Assembly (NCBI GenBank): GCA_963759775.1
Contig: CAVXAH010000001.1
Coordinates: forward strand, 208,682 to 272,681
Direction: 5' to 3'
From: an uncultured bacterium
GTDB lineage: Bacteria; Patescibacteriota; Minisyncoccia; Phycocordibacterales; Phycocordibacteraceae
DNA: 64,000 bases
Position numbers and translations under genes: made by a program. Shown here piece after piece: positions 6,959-53,973 of this stretch. Below the pieces are notes generated by a model that saw nothing but the letters and a program-made list of their open reading frames with translations, was not told the DNA's origin and made no database searches. Positions within the stretch are counted from its first letter, which is position 1; each line of letters opens with the position of its first letter.

Positions 6959-6961
6959 GAT

Positions 6962-8074: not shown

Positions 8075-8223
8075 AACTCATTTCAAAACCGGGGCACGAA
8101 CGGGGCGTTGCATCCGAGGGGGTCGCGAAGTTGGGCGGTGCGAGCGTTTCAGGTATTTTTTCAGCAGAAAAAATACCGTACCAGAGGAGGCAGCGCCTCG
8201 TGAGTGGTTTTGAAACGAGTTCT
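8073..8223 (+). repeat. structured intergenic repeat, family A, copy 1
   Basis: 18-bp outer inverted repeat (AGAACTCATTTCAAAACC / GGTTTTGAAACGAGTTCT). Conserved core is GCGAGCGTTTCAG-GGTATTTTT-TCAGCAGA-AAAAATACC-GTACCAGAGGAGG. Related copies lie at 22834-22936 and 25686-25818. Confidence 0.6.
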
Positions 8224-20432: not shown

Positions 20433-22669
20433 CGCAGGCGCTCGGCGCCTGCGGTAGAGAGGGCGAGTGTATTTGCAGCTGGCGACCACCAGCCAGTATC
20501 AACATCGTTTGAAAACGTAAACGCCGGAGCGCCTGCGGCGCCGAGTGTGGAAGCGGCGAAGTAAGTAGCCGTAGAGGTAGCGCTTGCGGTGATTCCGGCA
20601 ACTGAAAGATTGCCGGAGAGAAGCGCATCTCCCTGAACCGACAAACGAGACCCGGGAGAGGTGGTGCCGATGCCGACGTTGTTCGTAGTGAAGTCATATA
20701 CCAATCCGGAAGTCTCAATGGCGAGTCCTCCCGCAAAGGTGGATGTGGCTGCGGCGTCGGTTGCCACAAAGAACGCCGCGGTATTTGCGCCCGTCGTGGA
20801 AAGACTTCCTGAAACCGAGAGTGTGCCGAAAGTTCCCGTATCCGCCTCGACCGTCCCGGCATTTAGAACATTGCCACCATCAAGCGTCCCGTCTATCTGG
20901 ACGTAATTGCTCAAGTTATTTTCCAAGCTGTCGTACACGCCGTTGATAACTTTATCGAGATAGTCTTTGGAGACACCGGAAACAAGGGTTTGGTAGGTTG
21001 GGTTTGAGTAGTACGTGGGATACGAGATGTTGGTGACGCGAGTCGTAGTCCCAGTTCCTCCCGCAAGCGAGCCGGAAGGTACTCCGGGAAGCACGATAGT
21101 TGGTGGTGGAGCAAACAACATTGCAAGCGCATTCGTCACACCAGAGAACCATCCGCGGATAGTTTCGTAAGTGGTAAGTGCTACGCGCTCGCCCGCCTCT
21201 GCAAACCCGAGCGCCGCAGAGAGATCTACCGAAATTTCCGGTATGCCCACTGCCGCGACTGTGAGACCTTTGTTCCCTTTTAGAAGATCGCTTTTGAGCG
21301 TCTCGAGCGCAACCGCGCTTTTGCCAAGGGCTCCTAGCGTCGCGATTTCAATTTTTTTTGGAAGCTCCGACACGCCGTGCACAGCTTCGTATGCAAGCGC
21401 ACCCGAAGAAGTAATCGCTTGCTCGTATCCACCAAGAAGGCTCTCGAGTCCCCCCACAAATGCGAGTGCCGACGTGTACTCTGCATTAAAAACCGCCTCC
21501 GCGATGCGCGGCCCGCCGTCCGCAAGCGCCTTTGTAAAACCAAGATACGCACCAGCAACGTCATGTGGTGCGCTGTCCGCAAAGACTGCAAGATGCTCCC
21601 CCACGTTCGTTACAAGCGAGAAGGCTACGCGCGCGCTTTCCGGTGCCGCTTCCGCAGTGCCGTACGCAAGCGAAGTACCAGCGCGTATAGACCCGTGTGA
21701 AGCGGCGATGAGCGCATTTCCAACCGCAAGATTAAACTTCACCGCCGCGACGGGCGCGGCGCGTATCGCGTCCCGCGTCCTCTCACCAAGCGAGAGTGCC
21801 TTTCCTCCCACGGTGTTTACAAACGAAAGATATTTCTCAAACGCACCGTGGCTCAAGCTATACCCCGCCTGCCCCACACTTGTGTACACATTCCACGGAA
21901 GCGACGCCACACTCGCAACGCTTTTTTCCCACGAGATTTTTGAAACGATGTTCGCAACCTCCCCAATCGTCGGGATCGCAACCACTCGTGTTTGATTTTC
22001 GGAATTTCGCAACCTCCAACCTCCAACCTCCAACCTCGGAGTTTCTATCGGCATCGCAAAAAATGTTGAGTCCGGGTACGCCAAGTGCGGTGACGCCATT
22101 TCATTCGTCATGTCCTCAACGCGCATCTTTGTGCGCGCTTGTGTTTCCAAAATTTCTGCGTTTATCAAAGCAAGCCGATCACTTACCGCGTCTTGTTTCT
22201 CCGACGCTACGCCCGCGAACGCGACTGATGCGTCAAACACTGAAGCTCCTGCATTTTCCAAAAAGTCAGTGAACACTGCGGCACGTGCGAACGCACCTGC
22301 ACCACCTACGACAAAAAGTGCAGTGGCAATAGCGACTCCTTCGCGCGCGAGCCACGTTGTTGGAAATACTCTAGAAGCTTTCGGAAGCGGAGCACTGAGC
22401 ACGCGCGCCACTTTTTGTATCGGAGAGTGGACAGCGCGGTATTCCTTCTCGCGCACCTGTTGGAGTGTGCGAGCGCGCACCTGGTTGCGGTCGCCCTGCG
22501 CTTGCACAAAGCCCTCAAGAGAATTCCTATCAATAAACCACGTACGGCCAATCTGCTTGCCTATCAATTTCCCCGAGCGACACAGACGCGCGAGGTAGTC
22601 AGAGTTATATCCAGAAAATTTGGATGCTTCTCTATTTGAAATTAGATTTGTATTTAAGAAAGGATCCAT
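20375..22669 (-). CDS. N-terminal 764 codons of the giant surface protein (HTH + TM + extracellular region)
   Basis: Excisionase-type HTH ISNREASKFSGYNSDYLARLCRSGKLIGKQIGRTWFI, then TM helix GVAIATALFVVGGAGAFARAAVF. The frame is lost at approx 20425. Confidence 0.75.
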   Translation of the reverse strand: MDPFLNTNLISNREASKFSGYNSDYLARLCRSGKLIGKQIGRTWFIDRNSLEGFVQAQGDRNQVRARTLQQVREKEYRAVHSPIQKVARVLSAPLPKASRVFPTTWLAREGVAIATALFVVGGAGAFARAAVFTDFLENAGASVFDASVAFAGVASEKQDAVSDRLALINAEILETQARTKMRVEDMTNEMASPHLAYPDSTFFAMPIETPRLEVGGWRLRNSENQTRVVAIPTIGEVANIVSKISWEKSVASVASLPWNVYTSVGQAGYSLSHGAFEKYLSFVNTVGGKALSLGERTRDAIRAAPVAAVKFNLAVGNALIAASHGSIRAGTSLAYGTAEAAPESARVAFSLVTNVGEHLAVFADSAPHDVAGAYLGFTKALADGGPRIAEAVFNAEYTSALAFVGGLESLLGGYEQAITSSGALAYEAVHGVSELPKKIEIATLGALGKSAVALETLKSDLLKGNKGLTVAAVGIPEISVDLSAALGFAEAGERVALTTYETIRGWFSGVTNALAMLFAPPPTIVLPGVPSGSLAGGTGTTTRVTNISYPTYYSNPTYQTLVSGVSKDYLDKVINGVYDSLENNLSNYVQIDGTLDGGNVLNAGTVEADTGTFGTLSVSGSLSTTGANTAAFFVATDAAATSTFAGGLAIETSGLVYDFTTNNVGIGTTSPGSRLSVQGDALLSGNLSVAGITASATSTATYFAASTLGAAGAPAFTFSNDVDTGWWSPAANTLALSTAGAERLRVTYFRKTWHRHHHSRRFS

Positions 22670-22833: not shown

Positions 22834-22936
22834 GGCGAACAGGTACTCCACCCAGTACGGCATTTTCCCTGCTGAGAAAATGCCTGAAATGCTCGCGTCG
22901 TCACGCTCTCAACCCCCTTTAAAGCACCTGTTCGCC
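22834..22936 (-). repeat. structured intergenic repeat, family A, copy 2 (inverted orientation)
   Basis: Outer stem GGCGAACAGGTAC / GCACCTGTTCGCC. Reverse complement contains GCGAGCATTTCAG-GGCATTTTC-TCAGCAGG-GAAAATGCC-GTAC. Confidence 0.6.
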
Positions 22937-25685: not shown

Positions 25686-25818
25686 CCCTAGGCGGGGCAG
25701 GTGCTTCAGAGGGGGTTGCGAGCGCGACGGCGCGAGCATTTCAGCCATTTTTTCAGCAGGAAAAATGGCGTACCCGAGGAGGTACCTGCCCCGCCTTCGG
25801 GTTTGCCGACAGACCCTA
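25686..25818 (+). repeat. structured intergenic repeat, family A, copy 3
   Basis: 12-bp outer stem GGCGGGGCAGGT / ACCTGCCCCGCC (25691-25702, 25784-25795). Core is GCGAGCATTTCAG-GCCATTTTT-TCAGCAGG-AAAAATGGC-GTACCCGAGGAGG. Confidence 0.6.
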
Positions 25819-26812: not shown

Positions 26813-26848
26813 GAAAACAATACTACCATATATGGTAGTATTGTTTTC
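26813..26848. promoter_or_regulatory. 36-bp perfect palindrome abutting the yerC-like start codon (candidate operator / bidirectional extended -10 promoter)
   Basis: Sequence is GAAAACAATACTACCATATATGGTAGTATTGTTTTC. It reads TGgTAGTAT-N7-ATG(26849). The core AATACTACCATATATGGTAGTATT recurs at 27304-27345 and 50972-50995. Confidence 0.6.
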
Positions 26849-27280
26849 ATGAAAAAGAAAATAAATGACTTATCGGAAGCCGAACGCATCAAAACACTGG
26901 ACGCGCTCTACACCGCCGCAAGCAGTGTGCATACTCGTGCTGACATGAAAGCCTTCTTACGAGATCTGCTCACGGTGAGTGAGCGTGTGATGCTTGGGCG
27001 ACGTATTCTTATCGCACGCCTTTTGCTCCAAGGAGAGACGCGAGATGCTATACGCACGCGAACTGGTGCAGGGTACGCCACCATAGAGAGAGTGGGACAG
27101 TGGCTTGAAGACCAAATGCCTGGGTATGAGCAGGCTATTACGGGCATGGAGCGCGAATTTAAGACGCGGAGATTTTATATGCACTACAGCGCGCGCGAGG
27201 TATTGCGACGCCTTAAGAAACGCTACCCTCTCCACTTTCTGCTCTTCCCCGAACCATCTTCAAAAAAGAACCGCTCTTAA
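26849..27280 (+). CDS. TrpR-like YerC/YecD family DNA-binding protein
   Basis: LRDLLTVSERVMLGRRILIARLLLQGETRDAIRTRTGAGYATIERV matches the YerC/YecD Trp-repressor-like family. Confidence 0.75.
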   Translation: MKKKINDLSEAERIKTLDALYTAASSVHTRADMKAFLRDLLTVSERVMLGRRILIARLLLQGETRDAIRTRTGAGYATIERVGQWLEDQMPGYEQAITGMEREFKTRRFYMHYSAREVLRRLKKRYPLHFLLFPEPSSKKNRS

Positions 27281-27303: not shown

Positions 27304-27345
27304 CAAAAGTAGAATACTACCATATATGGTAGTATTCTACTTTTG
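27304..27345. promoter_or_regulatory. 42-bp perfect palindrome between convergent yerC-like and secA genes (operator copy and/or terminator)
   Basis: Sequence is CAAAAGTAGAATACTACCATATATGGTAGTATTCTACTTTTG, with the same 24-bp core as at 26813-26848. Confidence 0.55.
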
Positions 27346-35874: not shown

Positions 35875-36681
35875 GTATGGGAAAATCCTAAGAAATTTAG
35901 GAAGTGGTTGTATAGCGTGTCTTAACGGAATATCGTGCCACAGAAGACGATCACATCCGTCTATGACGAGAGTTCCGTCATACAGTTGAAATACTCGTGT
36001 TTGATATTTCTTCCCGTCAAAGAGCGAGTGGATTTGGTTATCTTTCAAGCCAAAAACCGAAAAAAATTCTTCCCTTACAAAAAATCCATTGAGTCGTGTC
36101 GCGGCGATAAGCTCATATCCCTTTCTCTTGCCAAGTTCCGTCAACGCGCGGAGAGATGATCCTTGGCTGATTTTCATATCTTTTTCTTGAATAAATATAA
36201 TATCGTCAGGAATGGAGGGGTTAAACTCAATCACCACGACGTGTGGTTTATAGGTGCTTATTGAATTCCAAATATGGTAATCATTCCCATCGACATCTAC
36301 CGACAAGAGATCAAAATCTTTAGGAATACGGGTTTTCGCTAATATTTCGTCCAGTGTATTTTCTCCCTCGAAAGAAACCATCGCATGCACGCTTGTAACC
36401 TTTGGATTATTCGTATATGTCTTTTGTAAAGACGCGTGTCTATTTTTGTCGCCTTCGATGAGAACACTGGACCATCCTTTGTTAAGAATGAGATTCCTTG
36501 TATTGCTAAAATGTATACCGTCCCAGGCACCAATTTCCACACACCATTTCTCTTCTTTGGTAGGTAACATTTGAAAGATTTTATCAATGATTCCATCTTC
36601 CCCTGTTTGAGAAAACGTGTTTTCTCCAAATGTTTGCAGCTGGAAATGTGTGGTATCAGTCTCTGTTTTTCCGTTAGTCAT
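35779..36681 (-). CDS. methyltransferase-like protein (FkbM-like)
   Basis: CVEIGAWDGIHFSNTRNL..VLIEGD motif. Start taken at ATG 36679-36681, which forms an ATGA overlap with the upstream stop. Confidence 0.45.
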   Translation of the reverse strand: MTNGKTETDTTHFQLQTFGENTFSQTGEDGIIDKIFQMLPTKEEKWCVEIGAWDGIHFSNTRNLILNKGWSSVLIEGDKNRHASLQKTYTNNPKVTSVHAMVSFEGENTLDEILAKTRIPKDFDLLSVDVDGNDYHIWNSISTYKPHVVVIEFNPSIPDDIIFIQEKDMKISQGSSLRALTELGKRKGYELIAATRLNGFFVREEFFSVFGLKDNQIHSLFDGKKYQTRVFQLYDGTLVIDGCDRLLWHDIPLRHAIQPLPKFLRIFPYSSHHWFRYLIFRIFRRIVKFVSRFDSPGKKD

Positions 36682-37721
36682 AGCGATGTAAAATATGAAG
36701 ATAATTTTTCCGCAAACTGATCCGCGGAGCACTGTTCGACCGCAAATGCCCGAGCATTCTCTCCGAGTTTACGCCTTTCGTCTTTATTTCGCAAAAGTCT
36801 TTCTATAGTCGCATGCAGAGCTCTCTCATTATTCCGCTCAACGAGAGCCGCACTTCTCCCGTCTTCTACATATGACTCCATTGTGTTGGTTCTTGTAACC
36901 ACAATGGCCTTCCCCATCGCCATCGCTTCAACGAGTGTCGAACAGCCCATCGCGTTGTTTCTTTCATGGTCCGGTATATTGAGGGGCAACACAACAAGCT
37001 TAGCGCGCGCATACTGCTCCACAAGCTCCTGAGGAGTGAAGTTGTGAACGGTCACATTCTTCGGGAGTGGTTCCAGATGCTTTAACTGATTTGGCAATGC
37101 CGTAATTTTCACTTCGATATCCAAATCTTTCACCGCTTCAAACAGCGTCTTGAAGTCCCGCCCAGGATCTCTTCCTATGCTTAAAATGAAATTCTCTTCT
37201 GGAACCTTCTGCGGTTTGAAAAATTCAATATCAGTACCTAAGTGTAAAAATAATGTTTTTTTATGGGGGAAAAGCGCCCTCAGCGCATTTTCCTCACTCT
37301 CGGAAATCGTAACAACCCCGTCGGTGCGTGAGGCTAAATAATACAGAAGTTTTTGTTTAAATGTCTTTCGTTCTCCTATTAACCCGGTTACATTGAAGTC
37401 TAGTAGTACCCATTTTGGTTTCTTTATATGGAGAACCGCCTTTATAAAGAGCGAGCCGAACGCGGTTGAAGTAAATACGGCGTCATGTTTCAGAAATAAA
37501 GGGAATAGGGGTAGATGAACAGCGTGTATGTTGAGAATGTGTCGTCTTAAGAAAACTGCAAATGAGCGGGGTATATACTGCTCAAGCTCAAGATAGCGCG
37601 CGTCAATTCCATATTTTCGCATGCGAAACATACCAAAAAAGTGACCGTCATGGCCCTCCCTGGCTTTGATGGCACTGAGTTCATCACGTTTAATTCGATT
37701 GAATAGAAAGAGGACTTTCAT
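36678..37721 (-). CDS. glycosyltransferase, GT4/group 1
   Basis: C-terminal GT1 pattern (NAMGCSTLVEAMAMGKAIVVT). Start taken at MKVLFLF (ATG 37719-37721). Confidence 0.75.
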   Translation of the reverse strand: MKVLFLFNRIKRDELSAIKAREGHDGHFFGMFRMRKYGIDARYLELEQYIPRSFAVFLRRHILNIHAVHLPLFPLFLKHDAVFTSTAFGSLFIKAVLHIKKPKWVLLDFNVTGLIGERKTFKQKLLYYLASRTDGVVTISESEENALRALFPHKKTLFLHLGTDIEFFKPQKVPEENFILSIGRDPGRDFKTLFEAVKDLDIEVKITALPNQLKHLEPLPKNVTVHNFTPQELVEQYARAKLVVLPLNIPDHERNNAMGCSTLVEAMAMGKAIVVTRTNTMESYVEDGRSAALVERNNERALHATIERLLRNKDERRKLGENARAFAVEQCSADQFAEKLSSYFTSL

Positions 37722-37728
37722 TGATATA

Positions 37729-38907
37729 TCATTTCTCGTTGAGGAGGTCATTTATGGTAGTTGATTTCGTGCTCATTTTCTTTTCCACATACGTATGAGC
37801 GCGCACCACCATACTTTTCACCGCTTCTGATTTATCGACGCAGGCCTTCACTTTACTCCTCAATTTCTCTATGCCGTCAGTCTCCTCCCAGAAAAACCCC
37901 CGATCACCGTCTTCTCCAATTGTCTCAACAATACCTCCGACCCTGCTCCCAAGGACTGGAACATTCATGTACATTGCCTCCCAAAACACGAGTCCCAGGC
38001 CTTCAGAGTCTGATAGCAATATGAAAGCATCTGCGTCGCGATAAAAATCCCATATGTTTTGTCGGTCAATGTTGCCGGCGAAAAAAACACTTTTCTCTAA
38101 AGATAGATCCGCAACTAATTTCTTTAGTCGGTCCTCCAAACTCCCTTGCCCAACAATCATGAGGATAAGATCTCCATCATTTATTTTTTTTAGTGCGCCT
38201 ATCAACCCGTCAAAGTTTTTTTCAGGTTCCAGTCTACCCACAGACAATATGATCTTTTTGTCTTTGGGAATGTGGTACATCTCTCTTATCGTGTTTTTTC
38301 GTGAGGTTTCTATATGCTTTTGGTCACGTGTAATTGTGTTCGGGTTAAATATTTTAATTTGACTTGGCTTAAAGCCGATTTCCTTCGCATATTGCGCCGT
38401 TGTTTCGTTTATAGCAAAAACCTGGTGGATAATGTGCTTTCCTAGGAATTCCATGAGTCGTTGGTATACCAGAGGCCAAAGACGATACTTTCGCGTGGAG
38501 ATAAGTTTCGTGGGAAGATTTGTTAAAATAATTACCACCTTACATCCCAAAAATAACCGCGGATACAGACTGCCAAAAATTGAAGGAAAGTCATATAGGA
38601 GAACGATATTGGGCTTAAATGCATATTTCTCGAGCAATAACGGCGTCATAAAGATATTTGCAATGTCGTATAACACACGCAATTTCCCCACTCGTGCCTT
38701 AAGGTGGGTGGTTTGTAGGTTTTCGGAAATCTCTTTATGGTACGATTTAATGCTCCAATTTAAGGAAAAAATCTTGTTGTGTTCTGGGTTTACGCCATCT
38801 CGCTCAAATTTTTCAATGATTTCTTTAGTATTGACTTCATACAAATTCCTCCAGTCAAAAGAAAAAAGTAGTATATGTATAGATTTGTTATCTAATAGCC
38901 TGTTCAT
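37729..38907 (-). CDS. glycosyltransferase, GT4/group 1
   Basis: EGLGLVFWEAMYMNVPVLGSRVGGIVETI. Confidence 0.75.
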   Translation of the reverse strand: MNRLLDNKSIHILLFSFDWRNLYEVNTKEIIEKFERDGVNPEHNKIFSLNWSIKSYHKEISENLQTTHLKARVGKLRVLYDIANIFMTPLLLEKYAFKPNIVLLYDFPSIFGSLYPRLFLGCKVVIILTNLPTKLISTRKYRLWPLVYQRLMEFLGKHIIHQVFAINETTAQYAKEIGFKPSQIKIFNPNTITRDQKHIETSRKNTIREMYHIPKDKKIILSVGRLEPEKNFDGLIGALKKINDGDLILMIVGQGSLEDRLKKLVADLSLEKSVFFAGNIDRQNIWDFYRDADAFILLSDSEGLGLVFWEAMYMNVPVLGSRVGGIVETIGEDGDRGFFWEETDGIEKLRSKVKACVDKSEAVKSMVVRAHTYVEKKMSTKSTTINDLLNEK

Positions 38908-39527
38908 ATTCTTTCCTCATTTTTCTTTATCACCATAAGATATGATCCTCGCAAAAATGGCGTCACTTGAGCAATGAGGGAAGAGAGAAAAAATAGTATT
39001 TTATTTCTTGACCATATTCCGTAATAAAATATGCTCTCGATGCGAAGACCCTGAATAGAATCAAAAGATTCCAGACTCACCTTACGAAAAAGCTTTCTAA
39101 TCGCCATGGGCGGATAGGGTTTTATGTGGCCGAATGTGTGCCAGATCGTCTTGGGCATCGGAGTAATAAGAACGATATTTCCACCCGGCTTCAAGACCCG
39201 CTTCATTTCACGAAACATCTTTTGAGCATCATCAGGAAACAGGTGCTCAATGATATTGCTACAATGAACGACGTCGAAAAAAGAGTCCTCGTAGGGAATG
39301 GCTGTCGCGCTTCCCTCTTTCACCTTTAACCCCCTTTTTTGGAGCTCCCGCACCATAGTAACGTTCGTGTCAATGCCGTATGCGCTGCTTGTATTATTCT
39401 CTAAGATTTTTCCTTCACCACAGCCGATGTCAAGAACGGTCTTCTCTTTTAGAAAAATCTCCTGAATTGGATTTTTCTTTCGCATCCAATATGAGAGTAG
39501 CTTAAACAAAAAATAAATGTTGTTCAT
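38904..39527 (-). CDS. class I SAM-dependent methyltransferase
   Basis: VLDIGCGEGK motif I and the Methyltransf_11-like layout. Confidence 0.75.
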   Translation of the reverse strand: MNNIYFLFKLLSYWMRKKNPIQEIFLKEKTVLDIGCGEGKILENNTSSAYGIDTNVTMVRELQKRGLKVKEGSATAIPYEDSFFDVVHCSNIIEHLFPDDAQKMFREMKRVLKPGGNIVLITPMPKTIWHTFGHIKPYPPMAIRKLFRKVSLESFDSIQGLRIESIFYYGIWSRNKILFFLSSLIAQVTPFLRGSYLMVIKKNEERI

Positions 39528-39624
39528 GTTATAGCAGAAAGAATGTCCTGCATCTTGGTAATTAAACCACTTAGTGAATGATTTTTAGCAATTTCTTCTC
39601 TTAAGAGTCTGTGTGTATGAATTC

Positions 39625-39861
39625 TCATATCAGGTGATGTGTTGAGCGTCTTTTGCATAGGTTTTGAATGTGCGCGAACGTGCAAGTGCCGCAGGCAATT
39701 ACCGCATCAACTGGATTGTCCCTTTCCTCGAACGCCATGATGCCTATCATACTCCCTTCAAAATCGCTTGAATACGCTCGGCTGTTGAGAGAATTTGCAC
39801 CCGGTTCGCATACCGTGCGGGATAGCAAATTGCGCTTGCATAGAGTAATTTCATGGCGCAA
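39625..39861 (-). CDS. hypothetical small protein (weak)
   Basis: 78-aa ORF filling a gap between operon genes. No motif recognised. Confidence 0.25.
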   Translation of the reverse strand: MRHEITLCKRNLLSRTVCEPGANSLNSRAYSSDFEGSMIGIMAFEERDNPVDAVIACGTCTFAHIQNLCKRRSTHHLI

Positions 39862-39869
39862 CTGTCTCT

Positions 39870-41006
39870 CTAAAAAGTTTTGTGTAAATCATCCGCGATG
39901 CGGGACGGAATATTTCCTTGTTCAGCGAGGTGCGCCCGGGCTTTCGGTTCGGCGTGCATAGGAAGAGATAAACGAACCTCAGTATCTTCAATAAGTCCGA
40001 CAATGTGGTACGAGAGCGCGGTTGGGTCTGCAACGGGCGCAGAAAGCACGTCCTCGTATCCCTGGAATACCTCGCCCACAATACCGACATCTGTGGTTAT
40101 GATGGGAATTTTCGCGAGTGCGGCTTCAAGAAGAGTCCGTCCGTATCCTTCGTATGCGCTTGCCTGGATGTACGCCTGGGCGCTTTGCATCATTCCCCAC
40201 GCCGTTTCCGCGGGAAGCCAACCCTTCACGAATATCACGCGGTCGGAGAGTCCAAGACGCCGCGCCATGCGCTCGAGCCGTCCTCGCTCCCGCCCTTCCC
40301 CAACAACGACGAGACCGATCATTGGGTAATGCCCTGCAACAAGCTTGAGCGCCGCAAGTATGTCCTCAATGCGTTTCTCGGGCTCCAGCCTGCCTACGGT
40401 GATGAGCGTAAACGTAAAGGGGCGAGTAGGAAGTGGAGCCTTCGGAGGAAGTGTGTAGCCAACTGCAACGGGAATAATCGACGGGTCCGGGATATTTTTT
40501 CCATAGCGCGCAATAAGAGAATCTTTGACGCGTTTTGAAACGACGCGGATACCATTTGCTTTGGGAAGCACCCGATCGGCGATTTTTCGGCGGAAGCGAT
40601 TTAAAAGCGGCATATGCACGCGAGGGGAGCGCCAATTCCCGCTTCGCACGAACCAGGGTGACAGAAAATCCGTATGCACTTGAATGTGAAGTTTTGCATT
40701 CGTCCCCTCAACAGCCTTAAGCGCCGCGAGCCCGTGTTCAAATGGGTCCTGCGCGGACACTATTTCTATATGTTCGGTGTCTATAAGGACGCGCGCGAGC
40801 TTTGCGAGCGCGCGAACTCGAAAGAACTTTGATGCAAACACCGGGTGCAAGTGAAGGGTTCCTTCATCAATACGTAGTGTCCGAGGAGGTGCTGAGGAAA
40901 GAATATGGAGCTCCCCTATTGCCGCGGCGTACGTGCGCATACGCGCGCGCGCAGAGCTTGCGGCATCAAAAATTGAGGGGTCGTTTGAGATAAAGAGGAC
41001 CTTCAT
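39870..41006 (-). CDS. glycosyltransferase, GT4/group 1
   Basis: EGYGRTLLEAALAKIPIITTDVGIVGEV. The true start is MKVLFISND at ATG 41004-41006. The track extension to 41084 reads through the adjacent element. Confidence 0.8.
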   Translation of the reverse strand: MKVLFISNDPSIFDAASSARARMRTYAAAIGELHILSSAPPRTLRIDEGTLHLHPVFASKFFRVRALAKLARVLIDTEHIEIVSAQDPFEHGLAALKAVEGTNAKLHIQVHTDFLSPWFVRSGNWRSPRVHMPLLNRFRRKIADRVLPKANGIRVVSKRVKDSLIARYGKNIPDPSIIPVAVGYTLPPKAPLPTRPFTFTLITVGRLEPEKRIEDILAALKLVAGHYPMIGLVVVGEGRERGRLERMARRLGLSDRVIFVKGWLPAETAWGMMQSAQAYIQASAYEGYGRTLLEAALAKIPIITTDVGIVGEVFQGYEDVLSAPVADPTALSYHIVGLIEDTEVRLSLPMHAEPKARAHLAEQGNIPSRIADDLHKTF

Positions 41007-41117
41007 CCCGTTAGAAATAGCAGACGCCTGCATCCCCTCAGTATGTAGCATGTTAGGTTTTTGTGACATGATTTTGTCGTACAAGCACTAGAGCGTCTGC
41101 GTCTTATTTCTAACGGG
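41007..41117 (-). mobile_element. ORF-less miniature inverted-repeat element (CCCGTTAGA family)
   Basis: The left arm reads CCCGTTAGAAATAGCAGACGC. The right end is GCGTCTGCGTCTTATTTCTAACGGG on the plus strand (reverse complement CCCGTTAGAAATAAGACGCAGACGC). Flanking direct repeat is TTCAT (41002-41006, 41119-41123), i.e. ATGAA on the coding strand. Confidence 0.65.
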
Positions 41118-41119
41118 AT

Positions 41120-42205
41120 TCATGGTGCTTGGAGCGTCTCTACCGTTGCGGTAAGCATGTTTTCAACAGAATACCGTTTGGCAGACTCCTCTGCACGTGC
41201 CGAGAGGTCCCTACGTATTTGGTCGTCTCCAAGCACTTTTCTAAGGGCGTTTTGCAGTGCGACGGAGTCTTCATGCGGGAAAAGGATTCCCATCTTTTCG
41301 TCACTGATGACTTCCGGGTTTCCGCCAACATTTGTCGCGACGACTGGTACGCCGAGCGAAACTGCTTCAATAAGGAGATGCGAGAGTCCTTCATATGCAG
41401 AATTGAGAACGAATACGTCCGCGCCCTTCATGACTGCAAGCGTATCTCCATGACTCAATACTCCAGTGAAGACGGCGCGACCCGGAAGCGCGTGCTTCGC
41501 TTTTGTCTCAAGCGAAGCACGGTCCGGACCATCACCCACGATCGCGAGGGACGCGCCCGGAATGCTCGAGACCGCGTGAACGACACCCTCTATACCTTTC
41601 CAGGGCACCAGTCGACCAGCTGTGACCACGAGCGGTCGCGGCAAAGCCGCGACCGCCTCCGGCACGTTTCCAACTTCTTCCGTCCTGACCGCATTGTAGA
41701 TAACCGTAATCTTGTCGCTTGGTACTCCCCACGCTTCCACCACACCCTTTAGGTATTTGCTTGGCACGATGACCTTGTGTGCCGCTTCTGCAGTGCGGTT
41801 TTGTATTTTTTGAAGTAGACGCACTTGAAACGACGGCTGTTTTGACTTCACGAATTCGTCGAGAGGCATTGAAACACCAAAACGCTGTCTCCCCTGCTCC
41901 CACGCATAGTCGCCCACAATCTTTACCACAAACGGTTTCCCCGCCCGCTTCGCCGCGTGCATTCCCGGGAGACCAACTGAAACGGGGTCAAGCGCCATAA
42001 CAAGGTCAGCGGTGCGTGCGGCACGGAGCACTCGCCGAAAATATACATAATGACGAAACAGTTTTGGGAAATGACGTACGTCGGAAAATTTCACGAGTTC
42101 AACATGAACGCCGCGCTTTGGCAATTCCTCCGCGAGAATCTTCGCGTAGGTTGCCGGGCCGCCAATTTCAGGCGGATACAAGGGTGTCGCGATGACGAGC
42201 TTCAT
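41120..42205 (-). CDS. glycosyltransferase, GT4/group 1
   Basis: EGLSHLLIEAVSLGVPVVATNVGGNPEVI. The true start is MKLVIATPLYPPEIGGPATY at ATG 42203-42205. The track extension to 42355 is antisense GIY-YIG sequence. Confidence 0.8.
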   Translation of the reverse strand: MKLVIATPLYPPEIGGPATYAKILAEELPKRGVHVELVKFSDVRHFPKLFRHYVYFRRVLRAARTADLVMALDPVSVGLPGMHAAKRAGKPFVVKIVGDYAWEQGRQRFGVSMPLDEFVKSKQPSFQVRLLQKIQNRTAEAAHKVIVPSKYLKGVVEAWGVPSDKITVIYNAVRTEEVGNVPEAVAALPRPLVVTAGRLVPWKGIEGVVHAVSSIPGASLAIVGDGPDRASLETKAKHALPGRAVFTGVLSHGDTLAVMKGADVFVLNSAYEGLSHLLIEAVSLGVPVVATNVGGNPEVISDEKMGILFPHEDSVALQNALRKVLGDDQIRRDLSARAEESAKRYSVENMLTATVETLQAP

Positions 42206-42486
42206 CCCGTTAGAGATAGGAAACGCTTTAGCCGGTTTTTGAGATACCGTTTGCCCGTCCCGGTTTTCAGGTACTTCTCTCGAGCTTCCGCGTCCTCCAG
42301 GTTGTGACATGCTTCGTAATATATCAGTTCGTACGGACGGTGCTTTTTTGTCCAACCGCGAGACCCTTTTTGATGCTGGCTGAAGCGTTTCCGTAAATCA
42401 TTTGTGACCCCCGTGTACCAATAATCGCTCGTGAGGCTTTTGATGACGTACACATAACACATTTTGTTATCTCTAACGGGATTCAT
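42202..42486 (-). CDS. GIY-YIG nuclease family protein (UPF0213/COG2827 type)
   Basis: MCYVYVIKSLTSDYWYTGVTNDLRKRFSQHQKG...YYEAC...AREKYLK matches the GIY-YIG pattern. The conserved start is ATG 42460-42462. The upstream in-frame ATG 42484-42486 lies in the duplicated target. Confidence 0.85.
   Translation of the reverse strand: MNPVRDNKMCYVYVIKSLTSDYWYTGVTNDLRKRFSQHQKGSRGWTKKHRPYELIYYEACHNLEDAEAREKYLKTGTGKRYLKNRLKRFLSLTG
42206..42480 (-). mobile_element. 275-bp inverted-repeat-bounded GIY-YIG cassette, copy 1
   Basis: Termini are CCCGTTAGAGATA / TATCTCTAACGGG. Flanking direct repeat is TTCAT (42201-42205, 42482-42486). It is identical to 43630-43904 except at 2 positions. Confidence 0.7.
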
Positions 42487-42495
42487 AACCCTATT

Positions 42496-43629
42496 CTAAC
42501 GGCTTACAAACAGCTGGTCGAATATCCTACGCATCGTAGAACTGATCAGGTTCCAATCATATTTTTCTGTAACCATCTTGAGTGCATTTGCCGTAACCTC
42601 GTTTGCTTTCTCCGGCCGCGCCAAAATATCTTTCACCGCTTCAGCAATCTGCTCCGGTGAGTTTTTATCAACCGCCCAACCAGTCGTCGCCTTATCGGGA
42701 TTGCGTTTTTCGTCATATAGAAAATCTGCGATGCCTCCCTCTTGAGTTGTTATCACCGGAAGTCCGGCGGCCATTGCTTCCATAAACGAAACCCCGAAGC
42801 CTTCGGTCCTTGAGGGGCGAATAAAGATGTCGGCCGCATGCAAATACTGAGGAATACCAGCTCGGTCGACATGACCGAGAAACTCCACACGATTTTCTAT
42901 CTTGAGTTTTTTCACTAACGCCTTGAGTGAACCCTCTTCCGGCCCACTGCCGAGTATTTGAAATTGCACCGAATCAGGCAACAGACGGAGAGCCTTTATA
43001 ACATCGTCAATCGCATTTTTATGCACAAGTCTTGAGGTCGTAATAAGTACGGTCTCCCTGTGTGAAATTGGTGCCCCTGCAAACTTCGTTACATCGACTC
43101 CGTTCGGCACGAGGTGAATTGCTCCTTTGAAATGCCGTGCGCGTGCCCACTTGGCGAGATAATTTGAAAGCGGCAGTACCACCTTCGCCTTAGTAAACGC
43201 TTGCGCAAAAAGTGGCCAGAGCGGCAACATCGTACGCTCAATATGCGCTATAGGGTCCCCTTCTTGGAGACTGAGCGCATACGGTACCTCCGGATGAAAG
43301 GTGTGAAAATGTGCGGCAGGAATGCCTGATGAGTGCGCCATCATAGCCCACGCCGCATCAAAATGATGTTCTTTATGGAGTGCTGCTGCCTTGCGAGCCG
43401 CTGTGTATTGAAAAAAAAGTTTGCTCAACCTTCCGTTGCTACTTCCGATACGGTGTACAAACACATTGCCGATTTTTTCTTCACGTTTCTCCAAGACGGA
43501 GAAACGCATGGTCACCATGTGAAATTCAATTTCCTTCGGATCAATCCGGTCCGTAACTTCTTTGATCGCCACTTCAGCCCCGCCCACGTGTGGATAGTAT
43601 GCGAGAGAGAAAATAAGCACGCGCTTCAT
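42496..43629 (-). CDS. glycosyltransferase, GT4/group 1
   Basis: EGFGVSFMEAMAAGLPVITTQEGGIADFL. The true start is MKRVLIFSLAYYPHVGGAEV at ATG 43627-43629. Confidence 0.8.
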   Translation of the reverse strand: MKRVLIFSLAYYPHVGGAEVAIKEVTDRIDPKEIEFHMVTMRFSVLEKREEKIGNVFVHRIGSSNGRLSKLFFQYTAARKAAALHKEHHFDAAWAMMAHSSGIPAAHFHTFHPEVPYALSLQEGDPIAHIERTMLPLWPLFAQAFTKAKVVLPLSNYLAKWARARHFKGAIHLVPNGVDVTKFAGAPISHRETVLITTSRLVHKNAIDDVIKALRLLPDSVQFQILGSGPEEGSLKALVKKLKIENRVEFLGHVDRAGIPQYLHAADIFIRPSRTEGFGVSFMEAMAAGLPVITTQEGGIADFLYDEKRNPDKATTGWAVDKNSPEQIAEAVKDILARPEKANEVTANALKMVTEKYDWNLISSTMRRIFDQLFVSR

Positions 43630-43910
43630 CCCGTTAGAGATAGGAAACGCTTCAGGCGGTTTTTGAGATACCGTTTGCCCGTCCCGGTTTTCAGGTACTT
43701 CTCTCGAGCTTCCGCGTCCTCCAGGTTGTGACATGCTTCGTAATATATCAGTTCGTACGGACGGTGCTTTTTTGTCCAACCGCGAGACCCTTTTTGATGC
43801 TGGCTGAAGCGTTTCCGTAAATCATTTGTGACCCCCGTGTACCAATAATCGCTCGTGAGGCTTTTGATGACGTACACATAACACATTTTGTTATCTCTAA
43901 CGGGACTCAT
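43626..43910 (-). CDS. GIY-YIG nuclease family protein (second copy)
   Basis: Same protein as 42202..42486 from codon 9 onward. It differs only at residue 2 (S for N), which lies outside the inverted repeat. Confidence 0.85.
   Translation of the reverse strand: MSPVRDNKMCYVYVIKSLTSDYWYTGVTNDLRKRFSQHQKGSRGWTKKHRPYELIYYEACHNLEDAEAREKYLKTGTGKRYLKNRLKRFLSLTG
43630..43904 (-). mobile_element. 275-bp inverted-repeat-bounded GIY-YIG cassette, copy 2
   Basis: Same termini as copy 1. Flanks are CTTCAT / ACTCAT (ATGA on the coding strand). The upstream gene's stop TGA and the downstream gene's ATG both lie in the flanks. Confidence 0.7.
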
Positions 43911-44752
43911 GATCGAATATACTCAAGCAGTTTCCTTTTCGGCATCCAGCCGATTCCTCGAGATTTCGTTGTATCAATACGTGCCTCCATTCGGTTCCCT
44001 TTCACTTCTGGCTTCATTTCAATAGGAGCGTTAAAAGATTTCGCTACCTCGATTACTGAGAAAGATTCATCTGCACCAAGTCCAAACTCGTCTCCTTCTC
44101 CTTTTTCGGCAACTACAGAAAGACCCTCCACAATGTCGTCTACGTGTGTGAATATGCGCCGCTGGGTACCCGGAGCATTCACGGTTAACGGGCCGCCTTT
44201 CGTTGCCTGTTGTCGAAATATTTCGATTACGGTCCCGTATTTACCCACCCGCTCACCTGGTCCATAGACGTTATAAAAATAGGTAATCGCGTACGGAAGC
44301 GCATACCACTCTCCGTAATTGCGCACCAGCTCCGTGTTTGTGGCCTTAGTCCACGCATACGGGCTTTGATCTCGTCCTAGCCCGCCGTCAGCAAACTTTG
44401 TTGAGGAACCGGCGTATATGAGCTTTCCTCCTCGTTTTCGCCAAAATTCAAGAACGCCAAAGGTGCCTGCGGCATTAAGATCCCAAACGAGAGCGGGTTC
44501 AGTAAGACTTACCTCAACACGAGAGTATTCCCCAAGATGAAAAATGAGGTCGGGAGTATCGGGAATATGTTTCTCAATATCTTTCGTGTGGCCTTCGCGA
44601 TACTCAACTCCGGCAACATGATTTTCTTTTGAGCCGGTAAAATAATTGTCCAGAGAAATGACGCTGTGTCCGTCTTTGACGAGGCGTGCACACAGATGCG
44701 AGCCAATGAAACCCGCTCCACCGGTGACAACAATAAGTTTCTTGGGGGTCAT
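43907..44752 (-). CDS. NAD-dependent epimerase/dehydratase (UDP-glucuronate decarboxylase-like)
   Basis: KLIVVTGGAGFIGSHLCARL..SLDNYFTGSKENH. Start taken at ATG 44750-44752. Confidence 0.75.
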   Translation of the reverse strand: MTPKKLIVVTGGAGFIGSHLCARLVKDGHSVISLDNYFTGSKENHVAGVEYREGHTKDIEKHIPDTPDLIFHLGEYSRVEVSLTEPALVWDLNAAGTFGVLEFWRKRGGKLIYAGSSTKFADGGLGRDQSPYAWTKATNTELVRNYGEWYALPYAITYFYNVYGPGERVGKYGTVIEIFRQQATKGGPLTVNAPGTQRRIFTHVDDIVEGLSVVAEKGEGDEFGLGADESFSVIEVAKSFNAPIEMKPEVKGNRMEARIDTTKSRGIGWMPKRKLLEYIRS

Positions 44753-44754
44753 TT

Positions 44755-45870
44755 TTAGAAAAAGATAAACGTGCTGGCGGCGAGGGCGGCAAGTCCGCCG
44801 AGGCTCCATGTCCAGAGTGAAGACTTGGGCGCCGCCTCGGAAGCGGGCAATACCGCCCCCGCAGCGGCAAGGTTTACTTGCGCCGCGGGGGCTTTCACTC
44901 CTTCAGTTGCATGGTTCGTAGCGGTTAGCGCTGGCTTCGTCTCGACCGACTGCACTTTTGATAACACGTGAGTGGTAGGGGCAGGTTTCGCGGCAACGGA
45001 TGGCGCGACAGGCGATTGCCATGCGGCGGCGACTTTTCCATTTGGGAATAAAAACTCTGTAGTCTCTAGAGAAGGAAGTCCGGTCGTCTCCGGAACAAAC
45101 GTTATTGTTTTGCCGCCCAAAATACGAGTGTTCGCTGGAACTCTGAACGCCGTATCTCCTGCGGTAAGTACCCATCCAGAAAGGTCAACCGTATAAGTAT
45201 CGTCGTTCGTGAGTGCAATACCAGATTCAAGCGCCGCGACGCGAACGCGAGAGGGCGTCACCGTAACCACAAAAGAATCGCACATATCGTCTTCGCCTTT
45301 AATGGTTACGCACGCCACAACTAGATACTCGCCCGGGACTCTATACGCATGGAGAACACGTTGTCCCCGCTTTGTCGTACCGTCGCCAAACGACCACACG
45401 GCCCTCACATGCGGGCGTACTCTGCCGTCTGATTCATACACCCGCGCCGTATATGTCGCTTCCACATTCACGATCGCTCTACGATCGTCTCCAATCGAGA
45501 TTTGGGCATTAGAGAGCGGCGGACGCTTTTTCCCGTGACTCGTCGTTACGACCGGCACAGCGTCCTCTACCAATCCGTCCTTAATCTCATTCTCAAAACG
45601 AGGCGGTACGCTTTCACCCCCCACCGTAATGAGCGCCTGGATATTTGCGAATGTTGTCGGACCAATCCCGCTCACGCTTTGAATATCGCCAATCGCAGTA
45701 AATAGCCCGTTCTGGTTCCGGTAATCAATAATCGCTACTGCCTTAGACGGACCGATGCCGGGGAGAGTTTCAAGCGTCGCTTGATCTGCGGTGTTGATAT
45801 TTATGAGCGCCGCATACGCACATATTGGCGTGAAAAGAATTGCGAGCGCGATGAAACTCAGTTTTCGCAT
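44755..45870 (-). CDS. ComEA-like helix-hairpin-helix DNA-binding protein with PKD-like domain and C-terminal TM anchor
   Basis: LININTADQATLETLPGIGPSKAVAIIDYRNQNGLF..SVSGIGPTTFANI (HhH x2), WSFGDGTTKRGQRVLHAYRVPGEY (PKD-like) and a hydrophobic tail. Confidence 0.7.
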   Translation of the reverse strand: MRKLSFIALAILFTPICAYAALININTADQATLETLPGIGPSKAVAIIDYRNQNGLFTAIGDIQSVSGIGPTTFANIQALITVGGESVPPRFENEIKDGLVEDAVPVVTTSHGKKRPPLSNAQISIGDDRRAIVNVEATYTARVYESDGRVRPHVRAVWSFGDGTTKRGQRVLHAYRVPGEYLVVACVTIKGEDDMCDSFVVTVTPSRVRVAALESGIALTNDDTYTVDLSGWVLTAGDTAFRVPANTRILGGKTITFVPETTGLPSLETTEFLFPNGKVAAAWQSPVAPSVAAKPAPTTHVLSKVQSVETKPALTATNHATEGVKAPAAQVNLAAAGAVLPASEAAPKSSLWTWSLGGLAALAASTFIFF

Positions 45871-50518: not shown

Positions 50519-51811
50519 CTATTGTTTTAGTACTAAATTATCTGCAATCTTGTATATATCTCCAGCGCCCATGGTCATGACAGCATCACCCTCTTTTGGT
50601 TCATTCCCAAATAAACGTTCAATTTCTTCAAAGGTGGACGCTGATGCATTTTGACCGTTGCCGCGAATACGCTCTGCAAGCAGTGCGCTTGAAATAGATT
50701 TGTCTGGCTTTTCGCGCGCAGCATAAATGGGGGCGATCACAACTTCATCAGTGTCAACAAATGCAGCCGCAAAGTCCTCAAACAAATCACGCGTGCGACT
50801 GTAGAGGTGAGGGTGAAATGCGACGAACACTTTTCCTTTCGTCTGCGCACGGAGCGCTTTGAGTGTTTCTTTTATTGCCGTCGGGTGGTGTGCGTAGTCG
50901 TCATACACCTCTGCCCCGTTCTTCGTCTTCCCTTTGTATTCAAAACGTCGCCATGTGCCTTGAAAGTCAGCAATACTACCATATATGGTAGTATTCTCGA
51001 CCTTGGGGAGAATAAAACGTGCGGCGGCAAGTGCGGCGCGCGCGTTCATGCGGTTAAATTCGCCCGGGAGTTTGAGTGGAGGCACTTCCTCTTTGGTGTA
51101 GTCGATGATGTGGGCCCGCGCCTCGCGGAGCACTTCTTTGATGTTTGGATTATTTGGATCGGTAACGATCGCACCGTCTGCGGGTACGCGGGCAACGGCT
51201 TTTCGGAAGGTGTCTTGGAGGGCGACGAGCGAGGGAAACCAGTCCGTGTGGTCCCACTCAAGATTCGTAATAACGAGAATGTGCGGCGAGAGCTCAAGAA
51301 GATGGTCTCTGTATTCGCATGCCTCAACCACAAAGAGGTCGTTTGCTCCATCTGCAAGATAGTTACTCCCGAAATCTTTCACGATTGAACCTATGATGGC
51401 AGTTGGGTGCGCCCCCGCGTCTTTCAAAATTTTGGCGAGCATGCCGGTTGTAGTCGTCTTCCCATGCGTCCCCGAGATGGCGATGGTACGCTTCCCTGCC
51501 GAGACTTTTCCAAGCATCCCGAAATATGAAAGCTGTGGAATGCCGAGCTCTTTTGCGCGAGCGCGCTCGGGGTTGCTTTCCGGTACTGCGTCGCTGTACA
51601 CCACTGCCTCGACACCTGACGGAACATTTTCCTTTTTCTGTCCTATCTTGACCTTGATACCCTTGGATTCAAGAAGAACCGTTGTAGCAGACGCTTCGCG
51701 ATCAGAACCGGAAACAGTCGCACCTTCGTGTGCGAACAGCTGCGCAAGTGCCGACATACCGATACCACCGATGCCGACAAAATGAATTCGCTTTGGGTGT
51801 TTATACGCCAT
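50519..51811 (-). CDS. murC: UDP-N-acetylmuramate--L-alanine ligase
   Basis: IHFVGIGGIGMSALAQLF and ISGTHGKTTTTGM. Confidence 0.9.
   Translation of the reverse strand: MAYKHPKRIHFVGIGGIGMSALAQLFAHEGATVSGSDREASATTVLLESKGIKVKIGQKKENVPSGVEAVVYSDAVPESNPERARAKELGIPQLSYFGMLGKVSAGKRTIAISGTHGKTTTTGMLAKILKDAGAHPTAIIGSIVKDFGSNYLADGANDLFVVEACEYRDHLLELSPHILVITNLEWDHTDWFPSLVALQDTFRKAVARVPADGAIVTDPNNPNIKEVLREARAHIIDYTKEEVPPLKLPGEFNRMNARAALAAARFILPKVENTTIYGSIADFQGTWRRFEYKGKTKNGAEVYDDYAHHPTAIKETLKALRAQTKGKVFVAFHPHLYSRTRDLFEDFAAAFVDTDEVVIAPIYAAREKPDKSISSALLAERIRGNGQNASASTFEEIERLFGNEPKEGDAVMTMGAGDIYKIADNLVLKQ
50972..50995. promoter_or_regulatory. 24-bp perfect palindrome inside murC, identical to the yerC-flanking core
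   Basis: AATACTACCATATATGGTAGTATT encodes NTTIYGSI of MurC. Confidence 0.55.
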
Positions 51812-53730: not shown

Positions 53731-53800
53731 TGGTGCAAGCGGAAGGAGTCGAACCTTCGACCGCTCGAGTATCAGTCGAGTGCTCTACTGCCCAGTGAGC
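53731..53800 (-). pseudogene. truncated tRNA-Ile(GAU)-like copy (D-arm to CCA, no 5' acceptor strand found)
   Basis: GCTCACTGGGCAGTAGAGC-A-CTCGACTGATACTCGAG-CGGTC-GAAGGTTCGACTCCTTC-CGCTTGC-ACCA. The 30-nt anticodon-arm region is identical to the intact gene. The T-arm and acceptor differ but still pair. Confidence 0.5.
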
Positions 53801-53897: not shown

Positions 53898-53973
53898 TGG
53901 TGCAAGTGCCAGGGATCGAACCTGGGACCGCTCGAGTATCAGTCGAGTGCTCTACCAGCTGAGCTACACTTGC
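53898..53973 (-). tRNA. tRNA-Ile (anticodon GAU), CCA encoded
   Basis: GCAAGTG-TA-GCTC-AGCTGGTA-GAGC-A-CTCGA-CTGATAC-TCGAG-CGGTC-CCAGG-TTCGATC-CCTGG-CACTTGC-ACCA. Confidence 0.9.

Follow-up and report, generated by a model that had tools for sequence, protein, structure and literature searches.

Proteins of the UPF0213/COG2827 family, such as E. coli YhbQ and B. halodurans BH0048 (structure 1ZG2), consist of a single GIY-YIG domain and are about 86-100 amino acids (aa) long. E. coli yhbQ is a single-copy gene, is annotated as a DNA damage response nuclease and has no bounding inverted repeat (IR). A 2017 review of transposable element classification mentions GIY-YIG in just two roles, as a type of homing endonuclease and as a component of the eukaryotic Penelope-like elements (PMC5718144). 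Our own survey of the literature, the coverage of which was incomplete, found no prokaryotic GIY-YIG genes described as IR-bounded transposable cassettes and no elements described that target and regenerate start codons. Here we analyse a stretch of 64,000 nt from contig CAVXAH010000001.1 (hereafter the window, within which element coordinates are given) that contains GIY-YIG cassettes bounded by IRs and inserted on the start codons of host genes. The cassette protein resembles UPF0213 members in size and in having a single GIY-YIG domain, and YhbQ is 39% identical to it over the GIY-YIG motifs. Unlike UPF0213, the branch to which it belongs is multi-copy, is bounded by IRs in essentially all of ~71 copies, has empty sites in relatives and is accompanied by derivatives that lack an open reading frame (ORF). 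GIY-YIG loci without such termini, which a preliminary description of the window had named as evidence that would count against a mobile family, were found only among distant UPF0213 members such as yhbQ; these delimit the mobile branch and do not refute it.

The exact 9-mer CCCGTTAGA occurs at 8 sites in the window, compared with 0.31 expected, and these sites form exactly four inverted pairs. Each pair bounds one element: two GIY-YIG cassettes and two ORF-less elements, A and B (Table 1). The preliminary description had recognized three of these, all of which are real, but overlooked element B. The cores of the two cassettes, each 275 bp, align without gaps (the coding strand is the minus strand) and differ at only 2 positions, as had been reported; because the 86-aa protein cores are identical, both changes are synonymous. 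The ORF is also in frame with the duplicated host ATG, as proposed earlier, and the 94-aa versions read from this junction ATG differ solely at residue 2 (N or S), which derives from the flank. The upstream terminus of cassette 2 has a mismatch at its outermost base (GT instead of AT on the coding strand).

Stop and start codons are interleaved at the cassettes. In cassette 1 the ORF ends in a TGA (42202-42204) that overlaps the regenerated ATG (42203-42205) of the downstream glycosyltransferase (GT) gene. The TGA of the cassette 2 ORF overlaps the regenerated ATG (43627-43629) of GT gene 42496-43629 in the same way, and the start ATG of this ORF (43908-43910) overlaps the TGA of the epimerase gene. 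The TGA of the upstream gene lies within the duplicated ATGA at 43907-43910 and at 41120-41123, in agreement with the earlier statement for two junctions; at cassette 1 the upstream stop is a TAG (42496-42498). Element B has ATGGA on both sides and lies directly against the start codon of a PfkB kinase gene (7079-8074, plus strand). Beside element B, window positions 6923-6958 form a perfect 36-nt palindrome (CATGCGTGGATTTTAGCA followed by TGCTAAAATCCACGCATG), the sole copy in the window. It covers two start codons, that of an aldolase gene (5999-6925, minus strand) and, just left of element B, the duplicated ATG; these divergent start codons are only 30 nt apart and are mirror images.

Orthologues of the GT encoded between the two cassettes are 71-74% identical to it, and three of them are in syntenic operons (L081, L082 and L083). 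Empty ATGA sites in orthologous operons had been anticipated, and we found all three GT junctions to be empty in each of these relatives, with a single ATGAAG or ATGAAA per junction that matches the reconstructed target. The repeat is absent from the entire loci of the three relatives. At the epimerase/GT junction the empty relatives read ...agatATGAAGCGCGTG..., where the window reads ...GATCATGA, the element (GTCCCG...CGGGAT) and GAAGCGCGTG.... The next GT/GT junction, which holds cassette 1 in the window, reads CGCTAG-aatgtagct-ATGAAGCTCGTC in L081 and CGCTAGAATAGGCGTATGAAGCTCGTC in L082; the third, which holds ORF-less element A, reads ...catATGAAAGTACTTTTC in the empty relatives. Because the junctions are empty in three syntenic operons and read ATGAAG or ATGAAA there, the three elements at these junctions are insertions. 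The two cassettes are 2 synonymous changes apart, yet they occupy non-homologous junctions, which is indirect evidence of transposition. A duplication of the 275-bp copies during assembly was excluded, as the copies have differing flanks, lie at different gene junctions and each have an empty orthologous site.

The unoccupied ATGA junctions that had been reported in the same window are also present (Table 1). The CTAACGG following the empty ATGA at 36678 resembles an IR remnant and was set aside as host sequence or chance. A proposed 'solo IR-like remnant' at ~42495-42502 (CCGTTAGAATAGGGTT) turned out to be the host gene's own 3' end; element-free orthologues read CGCTAGAATAGGCGTATGAAG (L082) and CGCTAGaatgtagctATGAAG (L081) at this position. 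The public gene model of GT 42496-43629 (P0121) is 412 aa long, which is 35 codons too many at the upstream end, and runs into cassette 2 (window 42496-43779). Exact-sequence look-ups of the GIY-YIG protein (86 and 94 aa), the neighbouring GT and P0121 returned no match.

Table 1. Elements, termini, duplications and host genes, by position in the 64,000-nt window
Feature	Position	Strand	Details
GIY-YIG cassette 1	42204-42482	-	core 42206-42480 plus terminal AT on each side; between GT 42496-43629 and GT 41120-42205
GIY-YIG cassette 2	43628-43906	-	core 43630-43904; on the ATGA stop/start overlap of epimerase 43907-44809 and GT 42496-43629
ORF-less element A	41005-41119	-	core 41007-41117 (111 bp); arms CCCGTTAGAAATAGCAGACGC; on the ATGA overlap of GT 41120-42205 and GT 39870-41006
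ORF-less element B	6960-7080	+	core 6962-7078 (117 bp); arms CCCGTTAGAAGCCGCGGTCGC / GCGACC-TGCTTCTAACGGG
Cassette 1 GIY-YIG ORF	42202-42486	-	94 aa from duplicated host ATG (42486); 86 aa from internal ATG (42462)
Cassette 2 GIY-YIG ORF	43626-43910	-	94 aa, or 86 aa from 43886
Terminal IR arms, cassette 1, ATCCCGTTAGAGATA	42204-42218, partner 42468-42482		perfect IR of 15 bp
Terminal IR arms, cassette 2	43628-43642, 43892-43906		as cassette 1
Duplicated host ATGA, cassette 1	42483-42486 / 42202-42205	-	upstream copy / regenerated copy
Duplication, cassette 2	43907-43910 / 43626-43629		
Duplication, element A	41120-41123 / 41003-41006		
Duplication, element B	6955-6959 / 7079-7083		ATGGA
Host GT4 glycosyltransferase, 361 aa	41120-42205	-	start codon rebuilt by cassette 1; L081 orthologue at 5138-6223
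Host GT4 glycosyltransferase, 377 aa	42496-43629	-	start codon rebuilt by cassette 2
Host GT4 glycosyltransferase, 378 aa	39870-41006	-	start codon rebuilt by ORF-less element A
Host NAD-dependent epimerase	43907-44809	-	TGA kept in upstream ATGA copy of cassette 2
Unoccupied ATGA junctions	36678-36681, 38904-38907, 63906-63909		

The protein has 3678 relatives in the database at E <= 1e-3, and the named sources among the best 120 are almost all Patescibacteria lineages. We scanned 80 genome loci for repeat pairs and recovered 94, including 71 of 267-278 bp with an ORF and 20 of 43-122 bp that were ORF-less. The architecture seen in the window recurs in ~90 further copies from Patescibacteria and other phyla, with termini A-Y-CCCGTTAGAG...CTCTAACGGG-R-T, a short duplication and an ORF whose TGA overlaps the host ATG. 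Across these loci, CCCGTTAGAG is found 15-35 nt upstream of nearly every ORF and CTCTAACGGG forms its last codons (S-L-T-G-stop). Many of the relatives are called at 94-95 aa, with an N-terminal extension that reads MNPVRD or, one base shifted, MIPLE, so the conserved object is the DNA repeat and not the peptide. An ORF-less subfamily with arms CCCGTTAGARGCCGCGRTCGC, which includes element B, occurs in at least 120 metagenome stretches, from which we analysed 50 unique insertions; the interior of this subfamily is AT-rich and unconserved. Further copies, for which the preliminary description had suggested a search, are therefore plentiful, and we conclude firmly that the elements belong to a family of small insertion cassettes that is widespread and includes ORF-less derivatives. 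Elements of the family also insert next to and within one another. At L018 (~2960-3000) tandem insertions place the right end of one element against the left end of the next (CTCTAACGGGATGAATCCCGTTAGAG), and at L012 (2877-3000) an ORF-less element is nested exactly on an internal ATG of a GIY-YIG ORF, indicating that regenerated start codons serve as targets again.

To define the ends, we took 71 distinct ORF elements and matched each left arm against the reverse-complemented right arm, with shuffled pairings as the control. The arms do not vary at positions 0-9. At position -1, 46 copies have T and 24 have C (hereafter the T class, or AT-terminated elements, and the C class), and the two arms are identical there in 100% of elements compared with 53% of shuffled pairings. 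At positions 10 and 11 the arms agree in 96%, compared with 74% and 43% after shuffling. Position -2 is A in both arms in ~90%, and position -3 is not complementary. The ORF-less subfamily behaves similarly, with three variable arm positions concordant in 75/75, 73/75 and ~64/66 copies. Conservation and arm-to-arm concordance together place the termini at A-Y-CCCG...CGGG-R-T. The concordance at variable positions further argues that the arms pair, or that one templates the other, rather than each simply binding protein; paired arms would be compatible with a structure-specific nuclease without proving one. Both ORF-less window elements fold as long hairpins with a stem that starts at the terminal AT (z of -6.4 to -6.9 for element A and ~-5.3 for element B), and the terminal stem likewise closes the RNA structure predicted for a complete cassette (z = -3.8). 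Rfam covariance models gave no hit at E <= 1 in 40900-44000 or 6800-7250.

A short target duplication is present. Immediately beyond the A-Y...R-T termini, 52 of 90 copies have one and the same dinucleotide on the left and on the right, compared with 26% in shuffled pairings; examples include GA, GG, GT, CA, TT and TG. Because the A/T at positions -2/+2 is self-complementary, readings of the duplication as 2 bp, 4 bp (TNNA) or 5 bp (ATGAA) are formally equivalent, and all three still fit the GTG/ATG junctions and the nested and tandem insertions. The earlier suggestion of a 15-bp IR with a 2-bp (GA) duplication fits the family-wide arm concordance best. Some insertions join different start codons, with GTGAAT on the left and ATGAAA on the right (L060) or ATGAAC on the left and GTGAAG on the right (L065, L021 and two metagenome copies). 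These mixed junctions, together with the strict T..A / C..G concordance at position -1, show that the element contributes the first base of the rebuilt start codon.

One subgroup of the C class (L010, L047, L050, L063, L068, L056, L067 and L074) has conserved flanks TTYAC...GTRAA and no evident duplication, which could reflect either a longer IR or a differing target or mechanism. Two other C-class GIY-YIG elements (L058 and L042, both at ~2975-3265), one from an Omnitrophota metagenome-assembled genome and one from a metagenome-assembled genome labelled Saccharibacteria, are inserted at the same place in type-IV-pilin-like leader codons, between G-F-T and I-L/V-E, with GTTTAC duplicated. The host sequence at this insertion (TTTACCATATTAGAGAT) resembles the element's own terminus.

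In 42/45 distinct ORF elements of the T class, the right junction carries an ATG or GTG from which an ORF of 60 aa or more begins. Start codons are likewise the site of 43 of the 50 unique metagenome insertions of the ORF-less subfamily, with the gene always facing the same arm. All four window elements are on gene starts, compared with 1909 RTGR sites in the window (212 intergenic and ~43 at gene starts under a crude gene model); purging of gene-disrupting insertions alone would predict this outcome at roughly (43/255)^4, or ~1e-3. We regard it as firm that the AT-terminated class lands on start codons and rebuilds them. With the empty sites and the recurrence of the architecture, these counts bear out the proposal of a mobile family specialized for translation-start junctions with derivatives that resemble miniature inverted-repeat transposable elements (MITEs).

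The termini also bear on translation. From the junction ATG, an open frame leads into the nuclease ORF in 25 elements, and in at least 8 (L013, L014, L032, L034, L041, L048, L059 and L061) this ATG is the sole start codon; expression of the element itself appears to depend on the insertion site. The ORF stop is a TGA overlapping the host ATG in ~49 of 74 copies. The right end, TCTAACGGGATGA, has a TGA in one frame, in another a TAA placed four bases upstream of the ATG, and in the third an in-frame S-N-G-M, such that translation entering in any frame would be delivered to the host start. The left end, ATGAATCCCGTTAG, has TGA and TAG in two frames. ATGA overlaps were previously found to confer strict termination-reinitiation coupling in 13/14 tested gene pairs (PMC6728339).

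The preliminary assignment of the ORF to the UPF0213/COG2827 type was supported by several searches. The GIY-YIG profile PF01541 matched residues 9-79 of the 94-aa ORF with E = 1.9e-17 (63.8 bits, cut-off 22.6), and 1ZG2 was the top match by sequence and by fold, being the only significant match in a PDB sequence search (E = 3.8e-4). A confident AF2 model (pLDDT 86.9) shows the beta-beta-alpha-beta-alpha core of the superfamily, with strands at residues 2-9, 15-20 and 44-52 and helices at 23-32 and 55-66; its fold matches were, in order, UPF0213 BH0048 (1ZG2), Slx1 (7cq2, 4xm5 and 6seh, with a TM-score of ~0.6 over the query) and the I-TevI catalytic domain (ranks 9-10, E = 0.34). Y3, Y5, Y16, G18, R26 and E50 are invariant among 44 homologues, and H30 and N76 are nearly so; by analogy with I-TevI, we take these to be catalytic positions. 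No NCBIfam model matches the protein, so it forms a distinct branch. PHROGs returned weak endonuclease and homing-endonuclease hits, and a PADLOC scan for defence systems gave only one meaningless weak hit. The 86-aa GIY-YIG domain is the sole ORF of the cassette and belongs to no known transposase class (DDE, DEDD, HUH, serine, tyrosine or Cas1). Where an ORF element and ORF-less elements occur at the same locus, they share the T or C terminal class (14/15 loci). Two distant GIY-YIG paralogues are bounded by unrelated IRs: one in L098 (~2783-3077, minus strand), with CCAGCTCCAGTTTTTGGTC / GACCAAAAACTGGGGCTGG, and one in L042 (5161-5409), with CCCTGTTAAATAA / TTATTTAACAGGG. The design of a GIY-YIG gene plus terminal IRs may predate the CCCGTTAGAG family and extend beyond it.

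We favour the explanation that these elements are a previously undescribed minimal DNA transposon family of Patescibacteria, and of some other phyla, with MITE-like derivatives, and assign it a probability of roughly 0.6. The form we consider autonomous is ~275-279 bp long and has one 86-aa GIY-YIG gene between 13-15-bp terminal IRs (A-Y-CCCGTTAGAG-N-Y), and the ORF-less derivatives of 43-122 bp have the same termini and fold as long hairpins. With the same degree of confidence, we infer that the cassette's own GIY-YIG nuclease mobilizes both forms, because the right IR lies inside the ORF, distant paralogues have different IRs and the terminal classes agree at 14/15 loci. The nuclease would recognize both arms, which probably form a stem with each other in DNA that is single-stranded or extruded, and would cut at the base of this stem. 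A short staggered cut at the target R-T-G-R, after the G, would generate a 2-bp duplication, or one of 4 bp (TNNA) if the A/T at -2/+2 is counted as target sequence. In the AT class, as the terminal sequences show, the old ATG remains upstream with its ribosome-binding site, where the nuclease ORF appears to use it or to be translationally coupled to it, and the terminal A (or AT) of the element combines with host bases to rebuild an ATG for the host gene. The nuclease TGA overlaps this rebuilt ATG, and ATGA overlaps of this type drive termination-reinitiation coupling. Through the rebuilt start and the coupling, the element would be nearly neutral to the operon while borrowing its expression signals. 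We give even odds that this is a new class of prokaryotic transposable element, with an 86-residue GIY-YIG nuclease as its sole protein, termini that have evolved to be translationally transparent and hairpin MITEs across Patescibacteria; its ~275 bp would make it by far the smallest of the known autonomous mobile elements. Such an element would claim the original ATG and ribosome-binding site for its own gene and supply the host gene with a fresh ATG or GTG made from its terminal base(s).

Several observations weigh against this explanation. To our knowledge, no GIY-YIG enzyme catalyses transposition. A separate DNA-binding domain is missing from the protein, which has only a C-terminal helix that is basic and conserved. 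In approximately 40% of copies there is no clean duplication, and the length of the duplication is not constant, a pattern that microhomology-guided repair explains as well as a fixed staggered cut does. Only 2/24 C-class ORF elements are at start codons, with 22/24 elsewhere, and elements of this class often have conserved flanks and no duplication. The symmetric termini leave the orientation specificity of the ORF-less insertions (43/50) unexplained. No relative was found in IMG/VR viral contigs. We saw no presence/absence polymorphism within a single population, and the homologue P0021 occupies one locus, at the same site in every sample examined; given that P0021 is fixed at one site, many copies may be old and immobile.

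The fixation of a homologue at a single site across samples would also be expected if the IR units were moved in trans by an enzyme encoded elsewhere and the GIY-YIG gene were cargo, for example a repair function or a nuclease of a selfish or addiction type, in a MITE-like vehicle. This would account for the same termini on ORF-less elements with quite different interiors, and no strand-transfer chemistry is known for GIY-YIG nucleases. We nevertheless consider trans-mobilization unlikely: in essentially all ~71 copies across phyla, the ORF's last codons contain the right IR, the distant paralogues have different IRs, as expected if protein and ends co-evolve, and the terminal class of ORF and ORF-less elements agrees at 14/15 loci. 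No other gene was found in common among the ~80 contexts, though no systematic search was made. Alternatively, the nuclease could cut empty RTGR(A) start sites, with repair then copying the occupied locus through ATGAA-like homology, in which case the apparent duplication would be inherited homology. Duplications of varying length (ATGA, ATGAA, TGCGA and only AT in the nested case), flanks that are sometimes imperfect, near-identical ATGRA on both sides of every AT-class copy and the weak PHROGs matches to homing endonucleases are all consistent with such homing. It is made rather improbable by the central dinucleotide, which co-varies between the flanks (GA, GG, GT, CA, TT, TG) as a true target duplication would, by the 4-6 bp of homology, which is very short for templated repair, and by clean duplications at the non-ATG targets GTCAAC, GCTGGC and GTTTAC. 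The cassettes also fall outside the class of free-standing homing endonucleases, having no extra domain, lying at non-homologous junctions and possessing IRs and duplications.

It is also conceivable that the repeats are a host-beneficial RNA or DNA structure, for example an operon hairpin acting in coupling, mRNA processing or stability, that has spread by ordinary recombination, with the nuclease ORF being incidental. The terminal stem does close the folds of the cassette RNA (z = -3.8) and of the ORF-less elements (z = -5.3 to -6.9), variation in the arms is compensatory, and the termini hold stop and start signals in all three frames. However, relatives function with the same junctions empty, the ORF-less interiors are unconserved and match nothing in Rfam, near-identical copies with target duplications lie at unrelated junctions, and the nuclease is under strong purifying selection across phyla, all of which makes this explanation very improbable. 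An artefact of assembly or annotation, or gene cassettes of the integron type, is barely credible. The 99% identity of the two copies could suggest an artefact, but their flanks differ and the same architecture is present on hundreds of independent contigs. The IR contains GTTAGAG / CTCTAAC, which superficially resembles the attC core sites GTTRRRY / RYYYAAC. An integron attC cassette was rejected because the insertion includes both complete IRs and the empty sites retain no core site or IR half-site, which places the boundaries outside the repeats and not between G and TT as in integron cassettes.

The window contains other repeats and features. A perfect palindrome of 24-26 nt, AATACTACCATATATGGTAGTATT, is present in three copies (26819-26844, 27313-27338 and 50972-50997), two of which flank a small ORF (~26850-27280); it resembles an operator, a terminator or another small repeat family. 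Positions 14400-20700 are a highly repetitive coding region, with 15 copies of a 37-nt GGTGCCGATGCCGACGTTGCC-like motif and tandem 147-nt units at 18522-19530, and presumably encode a large repeat protein. A tRNA-Ile (GAT) gene at 53898-53973 (minus strand) is accompanied, 167 nt away, by a partial copy of one end of the gene (53731-53788, 58 nt, 88% identical) that could be an integration scar. The distal part of the glycosyltransferase/methyltransferase cluster, at 36000-40000, has a GC content of 0.42, compared with ~0.52 elsewhere, suggesting a separately acquired block. A 91-nt inverted repeat (22840-22930 / 25698-25788, 84% complementary) and a 55-nt direct repeat (8136-8190 / 25728-25782, 85% identical) have in common a hairpin-like core, TTTCAG..ATTTTTTCAGCAG.AAAAAT.

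If the GIY-YIG nuclease moves the cassettes, it would add a new enzyme class to the few known among prokaryotic transposases, and the minimum size of an autonomous mobile element would drop to ~275 bp with one 86-aa protein. The family would also be a clear case of a selfish element with ends shaped by the translation apparatus and not just by its own enzyme, as these ends rebuild the host start codon, keep the upstream stop and would couple translation of the element to the operon. Such ends would explain how a parasite persists in the extremely compact, operon-dense genomes of Patescibacteria. On a practical level, the cassettes mislead gene callers, as the neighbouring GT model is over-extended and the nuclease ORF lost, and the elements mark start codons experimentally at no cost. 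A tiny nuclease that recognizes a defined 15-bp repeat or stem may be of use as a tool, and the elements suggest a concrete, testable function for part of the large, uncharacterized UPF0213/COG2827 family.

Several described systems share individual properties with the cassettes. Slx1 cuts branched DNA, which fits the model of paired IR arms as the substrate; it differs in having an extra zinc-finger domain and the partner Slx4, and it is a eukaryotic repair enzyme that is not tied to mobile DNA. The free-standing Seg proteins of phage T4 and the intron-encoded I-TevI are likewise products of selfish GIY-YIG nuclease genes wedged between host genes, but homing enzymes possess a long DNA-binding domain, spread only to the homologous locus and lack terminal IRs, duplications and non-autonomous derivatives. 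REP/RAYT (REPIN) systems likewise combine a small nuclease-type gene, set between inverted palindromic repeats, with many hairpin-forming ORF-less doublets dispersed between genes. RAYTs are homologues of HUH (Y1) transposases and are usually single-copy and immobile, and REPINs are found downstream of genes and not on start codons; in the family described here the enzyme is GIY-YIG and the gene-carrying unit is itself duplicated. Members of the IS200/IS605 group are also very small, use short sequence-specific targets and depend on folded single-stranded ends, but they encode a Y1 HUH transposase, have subterminal hairpins instead of terminal IRs and do not duplicate the target. Bacterial MITEs, such as the Correia elements of Neisseria and the Rickettsia palindromic elements, resemble the ORF-less elements in their terminal IRs, short target duplications, hairpin ORF-less copies and low-harm insertion in transcribed regions. 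No described MITE is known to rebuild, or to be specific to, start codons, and our literature survey found none. The insertion sequences with terminal IRs that are the parents of MITEs differ in encoding DDE transposases of at least 300 aa and in being at least ~700 bp long. The family nevertheless shows several of the features by which such insertion sequences are recognized, namely IRs common to coding and non-coding copies, orthologous empty sites and a target duplication.

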